Source: a virus | Taxonomy: Duplodnaviria; Caudoviricetes | Length of the DNA stretch: 28,155 bases | Virus record (IMG/VR): IMGVR_UViG_3300046720_000003 | Coordinates: 1 to 28,155 of that record | Direction: 5' to 3' (one strand) | In this document: positions 2,996 through 27,201 of the stretch, one piece after another | Position numbering within the stretch: the stretch's first letter is position 1 | Layout of the letters: every line of letters begins with the position of its first letter | Notes under the pieces: generated by a model | The model's database searches: none | What the model was told of the DNA's origin: nothing | The model's input: only the letters and a program-made list of their open reading frames with translations | Position numbers and translations under genes: made by a program

Positions 2996-3640
2996 TCAAG
3001 CGGGGGTCTGCCATCTCCGGACGCCGAATCTGGCGTTTTCCCGGCGCGCGTTGAACAGGAGGTGTACGAGATTGGACTCGTATGGCCAGCGAGCCACACC
3101 GCTATCCCTCCACAGATGCAGCAGGGTGCAGCTCGGCATGCTGTACCCGACTTCCAACGGGACGCAGGCCGACGGAACCAACTGCGGCATATAGACCGGA
3201 TTTGTCCCGCAATCCTGCACCAGTCCTAGACCGGTCGACCGCGACGCCCGGATAGGGTCAGGCCACCAGAACCGGCCGTCCGCCTCTGCTCCGTTCTGGA
3301 CCATGTCCAAGCGGGCTCGAAAAGCTTCGTGCAGGCCCTCTAGCTTCGCCGCGTTGCCCTCGCGGTCTACGTCTGAACCTGGCTCGGCGCCTACGATGAT
3401 CGGCACGTGAACGAACTCGCCGCTCATGAGGCCGATGTGCGTGCGCTGGTAGGCGGCCATCTGTTCCGCTGGCCAGTAGGCCGGAGCGCGCTGGGTCTGG
3501 CCGATCGCCGCCGTGTACTCCTCGTTGTAGTCGCCGCGGCGGAATGCCGCGCGCTGATCAGCTATCTGCTCCGGCAGCCCGATCTGCCGGAGCATCTTGT
3601 CGAGCAGTGCGGTCGCCATGTCCTCGTGGATGGTGCTCAA
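2996..3640 (-). CDS. Hypothetical protein (214 aa), visibly lower GC than the flanks
   Basis: TTG start with GGGAG RBS, 24 nt downstream of the recombinase stop. Confidence 0.65.
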   Translation of the reverse strand: MSTIHEDMATALLDKMLRQIGLPEQIADQRAAFRRGDYNEEYTAAIGQTQRAPAYWPAEQMAAYQRTHIGLMSGEFVHVPIIVGAEPGSDVDREGNAAKLEGLHEAFRARLDMVQNGAEADGRFWWPDPIRASRSTGLGLVQDCGTNPVYMPQLVPSACVPLEVGYSMPSCTLLHLWRDSGVARWPYESNLVHLLFNARRENARFGVRRWQTPA

Positions 3641-19880: not shown

Positions 19881-20344
19881 ACACTGGTCGCCTCGTTGTT
19901 CGCGTCCCACGCCGCATCGAAAAGTTCTTTGATCTGGCCCTGGTTGAGGACCGCGAACAACTGGCCGACCTGCTCAGGGGTCATCGCCGGGTCCACGCAG
20001 CACGCCGCGATCAGCGCCGGGGGGAAAGTCGAGGAGTCGAACGCCTCCTCCTTGCTGGCAGGGGGGTGCGCGGCCAGCAGATCCGACCACGGCTTGTCAC
20101 CCAGCGCCCGGAACCGAAACTGGGCCTCCTGGCCGCGCATCCGCTCCCGCGCCGACTGCAGCCGCTGGGCGATCTCATGCGCGGGGTTGACGTCCGCGAG
20201 CCCGGTGGGCTCCCAGTCCTCCTGGACCCGGGCCAGCTCGGATTCGAGCTGTTCCACCTCGCCCGCCACGTCACCGGCCAGGCACACCGTGACGGTGCGC
20301 TCGCGGGGCTTGGCGCGCTTGAGGATGTCGCTGATATCGGCCAT
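19826..20344 (-). CDS. Tail assembly chaperone (gpG-like), 172 aa
   Basis: TGATG-coupled to the major tail gene; lies between the tail tube and the TMP. Confidence 0.85.
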   Translation of the reverse strand: MADISDILKRAKPRERTVTVCLAGDVAGEVEQLESELARVQEDWEPTGLADVNPAHEIAQRLQSARERMRGQEAQFRFRALGDKPWSDLLAAHPPASKEEAFDSSTFPPALIAACCVDPAMTPEQVGQLFAVLNQGQIKELFDAAWDANNEATSVPFSLRASAILASLTDGK

Positions 20345-23484: not shown

Positions 23485-24819
23485 TCAGGCGTGCTCGATG
23501 ACCACGCCGCGCTTGAAAAGCGCCGCGTCACCAGTGCCCGCGTCGGACGGAACACCGTAGTCGCCCACCCACGACCAGGTCGTGGCGATGACCTGCTGGT
23601 AGCGGTCGGCGGGCGGGCGCACGATCAGCGTGATGTCCACACCCGGAGCCGGCGTGATGTTCCGGATCTCCGGCACGTCCTCCGTGCCGGTGCCCTCCAG
23701 CAGGGTCCCGGTCCGCTCGAACGGGGCGGCGATGAGCGCGCCCGCGCCGAGCACGACGGGGCGGTGCACCGTGAGTGTGCCCGCCGAGCCGCCGAGGATG
23801 GTCGGGGCCTCCAGGTTGCGAACCCAGTCGATGCCCGCGAACCGGCCGATGGACAGGTCCCGGTAGATCGGGGAGTCGACGCGGCCCTGCAGGGCCTGCT
23901 TGAAGTCCGAGTCCGCGAACAGCTCGGACTCCGTGTCGGGGTCGATGTGCGCGACGTAGTAGCCGCCCAGCGTCGGAACCGCCATCTTCCGCAGGCGAGC
24001 GACCGCAGCACGGAAGTTCGCGAAGGTGACGACGTTGGTGCCGGACAGGTCGAAGGCCGAGGCGCCCGTCGCCCGCACCGACACCGGGGCGTTCGCCGCC
24101 ACCACCGAGTCGCCCACCACGTCGACCCGAGTGGTGCCCAGCGTCAACGTCTTGGTGGAGGTGTCCACGCCAGTCACGGTGTTCGCGACACCGGCGATGG
24201 ACACCGTCAGCGGGGTCGACGCCGACACGGCAGTCGGCACGCCGTTCACCAGCACCTTCTCGAAACCGTCGGTGCTGTTGACGATGATGCTGGTGTCGGT
24301 GCTGGCCGCGGCGGTGGCCCAGGTCCGGCCGCCCGCATAGGCCTTGTACAGCTTGTTCCGGGCGATCTGGTTCAGCGACTGGCCAGCGTTGATTCCCAGC
24401 GTCTCGGTGTCGGAGAGGAACTTGTTGGCCAGCGCCATCGCTGAGGACAGCATGTTGGTGTCCATGCTGTTACCGAACTGGTCCATGGTCACCGAGTACT
24501 GCTCGATGCTGTAGGTCGCCGCCGACGGGTCCGAACCGGTGGTCGCAGTTGTCACCGGGGTCAGCAGACCCCGGCGGGTGAACGTCTTGGTGTCGCCCAG
24601 CCCGCCCATCCACGGCTGCGGGTCGGCGATCTGCGGGAACAGGAACTCCGGAACCAGCGCGTCCTGGAAGACGCGGTCGAGGGTCCCGTTCTGCAGCATC
24701 GCTCGGATCGCGGCCGGGACGGTGCTGCGCACGTCGTGCCGGTCGAGACGGAACCACGGCCGCGCCGCGCTCCGCTGGACATTCAGCCGCGGGCGGACCG
24801 CGGTCATGGCGAGAGTCAT
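23485..24819 (-). CDS. Major capsid protein (N4-gp56-like) with N-terminal leader and beta-rich insertion
   Basis: QFGN..LGINAGQSLNQIARN, YVAHIDP..L..D..F, IGRFAGIDWV; AGGAG RBS; synteny. Confidence 0.85.
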   Translation of the reverse strand: MTLAMTAVRPRLNVQRSAARPWFRLDRHDVRSTVPAAIRAMLQNGTLDRVFQDALVPEFLFPQIADPQPWMGGLGDTKTFTRRGLLTPVTTATTGSDPSAATYSIEQYSVTMDQFGNSMDTNMLSSAMALANKFLSDTETLGINAGQSLNQIARNKLYKAYAGGRTWATAAASTDTSIIVNSTDGFEKVLVNGVPTAVSASTPLTVSIAGVANTVTGVDTSTKTLTLGTTRVDVVGDSVVAANAPVSVRATGASAFDLSGTNVVTFANFRAAVARLRKMAVPTLGGYYVAHIDPDTESELFADSDFKQALQGRVDSPIYRDLSIGRFAGIDWVRNLEAPTILGGSAGTLTVHRPVVLGAGALIAAPFERTGTLLEGTGTEDVPEIRNITPAPGVDITLIVRPPADRYQQVIATTWSWVGDYGVPSDAGTGDAALFKRGVVIEHA

Positions 24820-24822
24820 TCG

Positions 24823-25011
24823 TCACTCCTGTGTGATCTTTACGGACACGAGGTCCGGGTACTGCCGGGCGTATTCCTCCAGCCCAAGCAGCGCGGTTTG
24901 GGTAATGGCAGTGATCGCCGCGCAGACGCGGCCGTCCACGGCGCGGCCCTCGTGTCCGGACACCTCAATGAGGGTGTGTCCGTCGCCCAGCTGGGCACGG
25001 ATTCGGATCAC
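24823..25011 (-). CDS. prp: Minimal Prp-family (DUF464, ribosomal-processing) cysteine protease
   Basis: IEVSGH...VCAAITA (His/Cys dyad) and C-terminal LGLEEYARQYP; TAGTG-coupled to the scaffold stop. Confidence 0.78.
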   Translation of the reverse strand: MIRIRAQLGDGHTLIEVSGHEGRAVDGRVCAAITAITQTALLGLEEYARQYPDLVSVKITQE

Positions 25012-25814
25012 TAGTAGCGCTGCCGGAAGCCGTACTTCGCCAACTCGGCCGCGACCTCTTCCTTCGGGGCCGTGCGGAAGTCGGTCGCTGGCGTCGGTGG
25101 ACGTGCACCCTGACCCGGGTCGGGCTTGATGCGGGGCTTCGGCTCAGGGGTCGGGGCAGCCGGTTCGGGCCTGCCCCAGTGCGGCTTGCGGTCCAGCAGG
25201 TCGTCGAGGGCCGTCTGGATGGCGTCGGTGTCGATGTCGCCGTTGTCCAGGACGTACTGCGACGGATCGCGCATCAGACTCTCCGCCGCGTCCATCGGGT
25301 CGGCGAACTTGCCCGTGGACAGCGCCTTCACCTCGGCCTGTACTGCGCGGGCAGTCGCCTTCGCGGCCTGGTCGGCGAGACGCTCGGCCTTAGCTGTGGC
25401 CTTCTCCAGCTCCGACTTCTTCTCGTCCTCGAACTCGGCGACCTTGCGGGCCAGATCATCGGCGCGCTTCCTTGCTTCGGCGGCATCCTTGCGAGCCTGC
25501 CGAGTCTGGACGGCGTCTGACTTGGTGTCGCGGAGCTCGTTCAGCTCCTGCTTGGCCGCCTTGAGTTGTTCCTTCATCCGATCGAGGGCCTTCTTGCCCG
25601 CGTCGCCGAGCTGGTCGACACCCTCCGGGTCCGGCTCAGGGTCTGGGCCGCTGGGGGGTGGATCGGTCGCCGGATCTTGCGGGTCGGGGTCTCCCTTGGG
25701 GTCTGCGGGATTCGGGTCGTCCGGGTCTGCAGGATCGGGGTCGTCGTGTCGGTTCAGCTGGAACCAGTCCGCGCCCTGGGCAGCAGAAAGCCAGCTAATA
25801 CGGGTACTGCGCAT
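25011..25814 (-). CDS. Capsid scaffolding protein (267 aa)
   Basis: ATG at 25814 with GGGAG RBS; D/P-rich N-terminus, LGDAGKKAL, coiled coil, KPH, PDPGQGAR. Confidence 0.88.
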   Translation of the reverse strand: MRSTRISWLSAAQGADWFQLNRHDDPDPADPDDPNPADPKGDPDPQDPATDPPPSGPDPEPDPEGVDQLGDAGKKALDRMKEQLKAAKQELNELRDTKSDAVQTRQARKDAAEARKRADDLARKVAEFEDEKKSELEKATAKAERLADQAAKATARAVQAEVKALSTGKFADPMDAAESLMRDPSQYVLDNGDIDTDAIQTALDDLLDRKPHWGRPEPAAPTPEPKPRIKPDPGQGARPPTPATDFRTAPKEEVAAELAKYGFRQRY

Positions 25815-25825
25815 GGTGATGTATC

Positions 25826-25864
25826 TCCCGTTGCGGGATTGGTCTCGCACCATTGCGGTGCAAG
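25826..25864 (-). promoter_or_regulatory. Twin RNA hairpins with CC-GCAAY-GG tops over the scaffold RBS
   Basis: CUUGCACC-GCAAU-GGUGCGAG and UCCC-GCAAC-GGGA; the second contains the SD. Confidence 0.5.
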
Positions 25865-26141: not shown

Positions 26142-27201
26142 TCAGTAGACGTATTCGTAGCGCCTGAGCATGGCGATGGCCTCATCGCGGGATCCGGCGA
26201 GCCGATAGATCTCCTCCGGCAGGAGCCGTGGGGTGCGTAGCTCGAACTTAGGCAGCCCGCGGCGGGCCTCGATCCGGTCGCGGGCGAACCGAATACCGGT
26301 CCGCTGCTCGGTCCGGGCACGTTCGGCCCGGTAGAAGGACCCGCGCCGCGTGGCACCCTCAAACGTCGCCCTCGGGCTGCGACCGTAGGCATCGGCGGTA
26401 TACATGCCGCGGCGGGCATTGACGACGGAGTTCATGTCCGCGCCGTCACGGATAGCTCGCGCGCCGGCCCCCGTGAACACCCGGTCCTGCTCGGCCCGCG
26501 ACAGGCCCTTGAAGTAAGCCTCCGGATCGAACGCACCCGGGGCGTGGCGGTTGCGAGCAATGAGTTTCGCGGGCATATGCACGCAGTCGCAACGTTAATA
26601 ATCGAGGGTGGCGCTGGAAGCCAGCATTCCACCCGTACTCCTTCCCTGCGAGGATGATGCACCTCGCGCACGCGGGCGGGTTAACGACCCGGATGTAGCC
26701 GTTGATCGTTCGGTTTCCCGCGATCGACGCCCCGGTAGCTGCCCGCCCCGCATCTGTGACCTCAGATGCGGCCATCCGCAGCAGTTGGCGCAGGCCAGTC
26801 ATCATCGCGTCGACCTCATTCGCGCCGGCCGCGATAGCTGTCTTCGACGTGACGACCGGCAGATACAGCAGGCTGTCCAGCGAACGGCCGTCAGCGGCAC
26901 GGCCTGCAAAAGCCTCAGGGCGGATTCGACCTGACGGGTCAGAGCGCAGCCCGCCCGCCGCGATGACGGACTCCACGTAGGCATCGGCCGCCGCCGCCGT
27001 AGCCAACTGCCCGGCCACGACCGCCTGCACGACCTGCGGGCCGACGAAGGTGCCCCACGAACGGCTCAAGTCCCGGCGGTCGATCTCCCGCCACAACTGC
27101 TGCGCCCGGTCCGCGACCCGCCGCGCATGCGTCTGCTGCGCCACGTAGAAGGCGTTCGCCAGTTCCTCGGCCGACAGATCCCGCACCGCACCGGTGGCCA
27201 C
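26142..27201 (-). CDS. MuF/VG15-like minor head protein, split by a 10-nt coding gap (349 aa if bypassed)
   Basis: GYIRV...ACARCIILAG...FQRHPR then, 10 nt later and in another frame, CDCVHMP...RTPRLLPEEIY. Confidence 0.85.
26592..26604 (-). other. Candidate translational bypass site CGA-UUA-UUA-A-CGU
   Basis: Arg take-off and landing codons flanking two in-frame UUA codons; skipping 10 nt restores HPRCDC. Confidence 0.75.

Follow-up and report, generated by a model that had tools for sequence, protein, structure and literature searches.

A half-size Prp-family gene and a shared leader tag on the scaffold and capsid proteins of a phage of Streptomyces type

The scaffold and the major capsid protein of this phage begin with short leaders that end in nearly the same residues, and a 62-aa open reading frame lies between the two genes. 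The question of whether this frame encodes a protease that removes both leaders, and at which bond, was analysed. The window, that is the whole stretch of DNA studied, is an entire virus record of 28,155 bases with a GC content of about 70%. Its genes for portal, head, tail and lysis and an integrase-like gene mark it as a temperate Streptomyces-type siphovirus, with the host deduced from its relatives. The order of genes on the minus strand is portal, VG15/MuF-like gene, small ORF, scaffold, 62-aa ORF and capsid (Table 1). The GTG start of the 62-aa ORF shares 1 nt with the scaffold stop codon, and the capsid ATG comes 3 nt after the stop of the 62-aa ORF. The same module with its tags is carried by many actinobacterial prophages and by the cultured Streptomyces phage Kromp (MH744420), whose capsid protein is 58% identical to that of the window. 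Kromp is reported to reach 2e10 PFU/mL on S. coelicolor M145 (bioRxiv 2025.09.03.674096). The first-pass annotation had placed a tag at the end of the scaffold leader, and it indeed lies there; the start of that leader is revised. A further in-frame ATG is present upstream at 25853, and the second ATG, at 25814, is the most likely start because a GGGAG ribosome-binding site precedes it and it agrees with the start of Kromp gp5. An ORF of 85 aa (26132-25875, minus strand), coiled-coil-like by prediction, lies between VG15 and the scaffold; it matched no Pfam or PHROG family above cut-off, and Kromp has no annotated gene at that place.

Table 1. Features of the head module in the window (the arrow marks the predicted cut)
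Feature	Position	Strand	Evidence
Head scaffolding protein, 267 aa from likely ATG	25011..25814	-	PHROG 4708, E 2.9e-17
Scaffold leader, predicted cleaved, 23 aa, last residue His23	25746..25814	-	Sequence; cut position by inference
Scaffold tag WFQLNRH↓D	25743..25766	-	Sequence; conserved across Prp-positive loci
Half-size Prp-family cysteine protease (predicted), 62 aa	24823..25011	-	PF04327, 28.1 bits
Protease His20	24954-24952	-	
Protease Cys30	24924-24922	-	
Major capsid protein, 444-aa precursor	23485..24819	-	PHROG 1357, E 4.1e-28
Capsid leader, predicted cleaved, 28 aa from ATG 24819, last residue His28	24736..24819	-	Sequence
Capsid tag WFRLDRH↓D	24733..24756	-	Sequence; conserved across Prp-positive loci
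VG15/MuF-like gene, frameshifted; rival enzyme, outside the module	26142..27201	-	Family matches, PHROG 1522

The occurrence of the shared motif was compared with chance expectation. The pattern WFxLxRH was found twice in the six-frame translation of the window, at the two leader ends described in the first-pass annotation, and in none of 300 shuffles. The looser pattern FxLxR[HF] occurred three times against 0.25 expected; the third copy lies on the plus strand at 20252, opposite the tail genes, and no additional coding-strand copy that could mark another substrate was present within the window. The alignment of relatives gave the consensus (W)-F-x-L-x-R-[H/F], so that the core of the proposed motif WFxL[ND]RHD recurs, and its [ND] and final D are variable. 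Conservation in homologous scaffold and capsid pairs was confirmed, both motifs being recovered in 110 of the 122 unique Prp-positive loci. Among the other 12 loci, the scaffold start or ORF could not be used in 11, and one was frameshifted with the motif present. The capsid tags (n = 110) had His at P1 in 109, Arg at P2 in 109, Leu at P4 in 105, Phe at P6 in 108 and Trp at P7 in 98. The scaffold tags (n = 110), for which the search pattern had pre-selected P6, P4 and P1, had His at P1 in 102 and Phe in 8, Arg at P2 in 108 and Trp at P7 in 95. Phe at P1 was seen in only one of the 110 capsids. The position after His (n = 110) was Asp in 72, Ala in 34 and another residue in 4.

The two tags were also seen to vary together. 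At 11 loci neither protein has Trp at P7; another 4 loci lack it only in the scaffold, and 1 only in the capsid. The joint cases belong to two clades and to the locus L160. L160 has Phe at P1 in both tags, and L067 has Leu at P2 in both tags. Codons for P2 Arg were compared in the 109 tag pairs whose residues agree, and 75 pairs use different ones, which indicates that the constraint acts on the protein. As a separate observation, the capsid leader of L106 (about 3190-3340) carries the tag twice in tandem.

The family of the 62-aa ORF was examined by profile search. Its score against Pfam Peptidase_Prp (PF04327, MEROPS C108) exceeded the cut-off of 27 over profile positions 1-57 of 90, in accordance with the earlier proposal of a Prp-like gene between scaffold and capsid, and the score against the NCBIfam Prp equivalog was 19.3 bits, below the cut-off of 133. 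Of 268 candidates, 267 proved to be relatives at E <= 0.001, and the 120 listed span 62-64 aa, so the short length is a trait of the family. His20 and Cys30 showed no substitution in 50 of 50 close relatives or in 47 of 47 mixed half-size sequences. The Gly-His...Cys pattern, here Gly19, His20 and Cys30, was found in 188 of 189 Prp-positive loci, with a His-Cys spacing of 10 in the half-size form versus 12 in Staphylococcus aureus Prp, so that the loop is shortened by two residues. The equivalent of Ser38, which is Thr34 here, was Ser or Thr in 102 of 102. Comparison with 47 prophage copies gave 1082 differences at the third codon position, against 484 and 454 at the others. From the profile match and the conserved His and Cys, the 62-aa gene belongs to the Prp family, with catalysis predicted. 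A loop-stabilising residue differs from the known enzyme: the equivalent of S. aureus Asp31, three residues before Cys, was Gly in 99 and Ser in 3 of 102 half-size sequences, compared with an Asp kept in 89 of 91 full-length Prps; an Asp stands one position before that site in 51 of the 102. The Asp31Ala form of S. aureus Prp is reported to be inactive (PMC9405229), and the loss therefore weighs against a simple transfer of function. The residue following His20 was acidic in 101 of 102; the exception is the Gly of L160, a locus whose scaffold and capsid tags both have Phe as their last residue. The idea that this acidic residue selects His at P1 comes from that one locus and is contradicted by Cp-1, which has Gly together with His; it was rejected.

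The half size of the protein was analysed with a profile built from the short sequences, which gave 614 matches against 1.84 billion representatives. Among the best 150 of these matches and two further proteins, 38 were of 85 aa or less and 109 were of 90-130 aa, and 101 of the 109 matched the half-size profile in two stretches. Against 91 full-length Prps, a set drawn with the half-size profile itself, which tilts the repeat test toward a positive result, the profile fitted the first half with E 4e-26 and the second half with E 5e-18 over 50 columns. The two halves of full-length Prp align with each other over the helix (E 6e-7), and the weak sequence match to S. mutans Prp (E 0.046) splits likewise into two parts. 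The modelled full-length Prp has the order strand-strand-helix-strand-strand-helix-strand and a TM score of 0.93 to 7KLD. The 62-aa protein does not comprise the Prp subunit fold of about 100 residues with two helices and five strands; its monomer model, a weak one (pTM 0.52), has two strands and one helix with the last strand unpaired, and Foldseek gave no Prp match with it at E <= 0.001. Judged from the profile alignments, the 62-aa enzyme is one internal Prp repeat, and the Prp fold is an internal duplication, as the half-size enzyme shows. The fit of the half-size profile to both halves of Prp points to a single repeat that likely oligomerises, where two chains would rebuild one full-length Prp subunit and four would rebuild the Prp dimer, which in the family holds P4 and P6 at its interface. 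It is tentatively suggested, with considerable doubt, that the protein is a self-assembling tetramer of 62-residue chains with four active sites and a pre-duplication clan CR architecture, having a remodelled pocket for Arg-His↓Asp that would make it a minimal, site-specific enzyme orthogonal to bacterial Prp. No tandem half-Prp was found among 8000 scored candidates. Four longer forms did appear there and were discarded: two are Prps of ordinary full length, and each of the others joins several genes in one long fusion, apparently through an error of gene calling or sequencing. Half-size Prps were also observed in lower-GC phages at L298, L302 and L304 (Prp genes at approximately 714-899, 2501-2695 and 1973-2160, respectively), 5' of a scaffold with an L27-like or intermediate leader.

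The co-occurrence of protease and leader was tested over 287 loci with a capsid gene, taken from sequence searches and three named phages, with 48 loci found using the protease as query. After dropping 10 loci without an anchor and 13 with less than 400 nt upstream, 264 remained, which formed 147 clusters at 95% identity. A leader was present in 97 of 97 Prp-positive capsid clusters, 88 by pattern, 8 as clear variants by eye and 1 as a degenerate form. The motif itself was present in 96 of the 97, and in none of the 50 Prp-negative clusters, absence of Prp being judged within 600 nt upstream, with one complete phage and two short contigs searched whole. The complete Ralstonia phage record gave no Prp match. 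The capsid of 46 of the 50 Prp-negative clusters has its ATG six residues before a conserved Pro, which is the site of the Asp after His; three others have Leu at that site, and one (L292) has a different extension. In a FastTree phylogeny of 70 capsid rows, the 42 Prp-positive rows formed one clade with a support of 82. The association of motif and small Prp foreseen in the first-pass annotation is thus borne out, as approximately one gain and not as 147 independent tests. The degenerate case, L073 (G009), combines a divergent half-size Prp with a capsid leader that has the His-Asp end and is without F-x-L-x-R. In the nearest Prp-less relatives (L074, L078 and L079) the capsid is leaderless, and the scaffold opens with a short hydrophobic leader (FTLFFNAD) that is followed by a Gly-rich tract; from its sequence, this scaffold leader is perhaps a substrate of a host Prp.

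The capacity of the hosts to process such leaders was then considered. In five of five prophage-bearing host genomes the sole PF04327 match was the prophage gene. The same five hosts have a short L27 without extension, with rplU directly before rpmA, in agreement with the earlier statement that actinobacterial L27 generally lacks the extension. Across 401 genomes of the phylum, the PF04327 cut-off was passed in one, by that same prophage, and one further match was weak and interrupted by a stop. The removal of the leaders is therefore likely beyond the host. The gene of the window sits in a phage head operon and not in the rplU-rpmA setting of the cellular ribosomal Prp (YsxB).

The position of the cut was predicted from the relatives. 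The first-pass annotation had placed it within or just after RH/D, and the bond between His and Asp is the most likely one, since Met1 of the leaderless capsids aligns with the Asp29 that follows His; cleavage there would release the 23-aa scaffold and 28-aa capsid leaders. The residues P6 Phe, P4 Leu and P1 His or Phe align with the L27 sequence L-x-L-Q-F-F↓A (table of PMC9405229). Compared with the 80alpha form, L-x-L-Q-[FH]-F↓small, the register of P6 and P4 and a minority P1 Phe are kept, and the P3 Gln, the P2 residue and the small P1' are lost. At L298, a half-size Prp is followed by a scaffold with WMFNIQRF-S, which is intermediate between the L27-type and Arg-His tags. The claim of a different recognition sequence is overstated: the Arg-His tag has drifted from the L27-type motif, keeps its register and is linked to it by intermediates, and is not an unrelated sequence. 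Known Prp substrates are reported to have a small residue at P1' (PMC9405229) and the P1' here is mostly Asp, so either the pocket must differ or the cut lies one residue off. A cut after Asp, where removal of Met would shift the leaderless start by one, was considered less likely, as that position varies, being mostly Asp or Ala.

Several known systems resemble the module. A clan CR endopeptidase of phage Cp-1 is reported to remove 48 residues from the N-terminus of the major head protein (PMC12445089, PMC9405229). Cp-1 gp13 is, like the enzyme of the window, a phage-encoded Prp-clan protease (MEROPS clan CR, listed with C108) accompanied by a capsid leader; it matches PF04327 weakly (E 0.0024), and residue 48 of the head protein is His, counting Met1, the same residue type as P1 here. 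It differs in being full-length (104 aa) and located away from the head genes, in a podovirus of a Firmicutes host (pneumococcal/Streptococcus); its site ARINH↓A has no F-x-L-x-R, and the Cp-1 scaffold is without such a tag. Both elements of the Cp-1-type scheme, the gene and a linked removable leader, are found here, with the removal predicted. In 80alpha, the host Prp is reported to act on scaffold and capsid (PMC5744158). In S. aureus Prp (YsxB, 7KLD), as in the window enzyme, a conserved Gly precedes the His-Cys dyad; in both systems one tag is common to scaffold and capsid, and its P6 and P4 are hydrophobic and in register. S. aureus Prp is host-encoded between rplU and rpmA, consists of two repeats in 106 aa, and cleaves LQ[FH]F↓A; the window enzyme is phage-encoded with 62 aa, has P2 Arg, P1 His and a mostly acidic P1', and is without the Asp31 equivalent and without a host L27 substrate.

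Kromp gene 6, annotated 'protease' and 71% identical to the predicted enzyme, was the sole match among 50,697 phage records, and no functional study of it was found in the literature searched. More distant relatives are common, as 478 viral stretches, of gut- and soil-type phages, encode one. Among the best 80 of these 478, where genes were resolved, Prp mostly lies ahead of a scaffold whose leader is of LQLF↓A type, and no fewer than three distinct Prps so placed are half-size. These phage-borne Prps differ from the present one in being mostly full-length, in lying before and not after the scaffold and in having an L27-like tag. Among the papers listed by full-text searches, none deals with a Prp that is half-size or from an actinophage. 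Phage-encoded Prp (Cp-1) and a tag shared by scaffold and capsid (80alpha) are already known; what is new is that the enzyme has a single repeat, that the tag is of the Arg-His kind and that the host phylum largely lacks Prp. The description as a self-contained system with its own protease stands as regards the phage gene and the Prp-less hosts, and loses its novelty as regards phage-encoded Prp.

The reading that best accounts for these results, and which is held to be probable, is that the phage-encoded single-repeat Prp would bind the shared F-x-L-x-R-H tag on both proteins and cleave both leaders between His and Asp, doing a job which the host, having no Prp, likely cannot do. Its role would be in the folding or assembly of procapsid proteins rather than in triggering expansion. 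The term 'head maturation' used earlier is overstated, since cleavage is dispensable in 80alpha, and a need of cleavage for head maturation is by this analogy doubtful. 80alpha with uncleavable capsid or scaffold is reported to be viable, the scaffold leader alone being essential, and its authors propose a common chaperone (PMC5744158); a chaperone role of Prp toward L27 has also been proposed. These reports, together with the loss of the Asp31 equivalent, favour a 62-aa protein that is a tag-binding chaperone or adaptor, with cleavage absent or incidental. This is nevertheless unlikely in view of the invariant His20 and Cys30 and of a leader end that is the exact start of the leaderless relatives; a chaperone role and cleavage are moreover compatible with each other.

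It is less probable still that a VG15/MuF-like 'capsid maturation protease' or a host protease cuts the leaders while the small Prp is a passenger. VG15 bears that annotation in Kromp and in PHROG 1522, and it was seen at 167 of the 189 Prp-positive loci, against 0 of 63 Prp-negative loci with the portal in view. Against its involvement, three Prp-positive loci of two lineages (L071/L154 and L160) keep their leaders with no VG15 between portal and scaffold, the VG15 gene of the window is frameshifted while the Prp-leader module is intact, and the tag is of Prp type. Least probable of all is that the two leaders share the motif for a reason other than proteolysis, as a signal in DNA or RNA or for the docking of scaffold to capsid. 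The DNA of the two tags is alike at the Phe and His codons, a likeness probably due to GC-rich codon bias; the Arg and Leu codons are free to vary between the tags, and the motif is absent wherever the protease is absent.

The frameshift of VG15 was inspected separately. It results from a 10-nt AT-rich insertion at 26601-26592 (minus strand), present in the record sequence, and the Kromp gene is, unlike this copy, intact, as is VG15 in 140 of 153 loci. The insertion falls exactly between His-Pro-Arg and Cys-Asp-Cys, which is the site of an intein-like insert of about 315 aa in L001 and L043, with weak matches to intein families; the same insert start is seen in L006, L007, L018 and L065. Insertions of 4-7 nt, all 1 mod 3, occur at or beside the same site in L048, L050, L164, L077, L085 and L125. 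From their placement, these insertions may be scars left where a homing endonuclease cut the DNA and end joining repaired the break.

The surprise of a single-repeat phage Prp acting on a shared tag would be moderate, because Cp-1 and 80alpha already follow the general scheme. The half-size enzyme offers a predicted protease-tag pair of very small size. The module also bears on the purpose of the leaders on the 80alpha scaffold and capsid, because the protease could be removed from the cultured phage Kromp with no essential host gene touched. If the reading is true, Prp-type processing would extend to phages of a phylum mostly without Prp, and the phage use of Prp would be separated from its ribosomal use.
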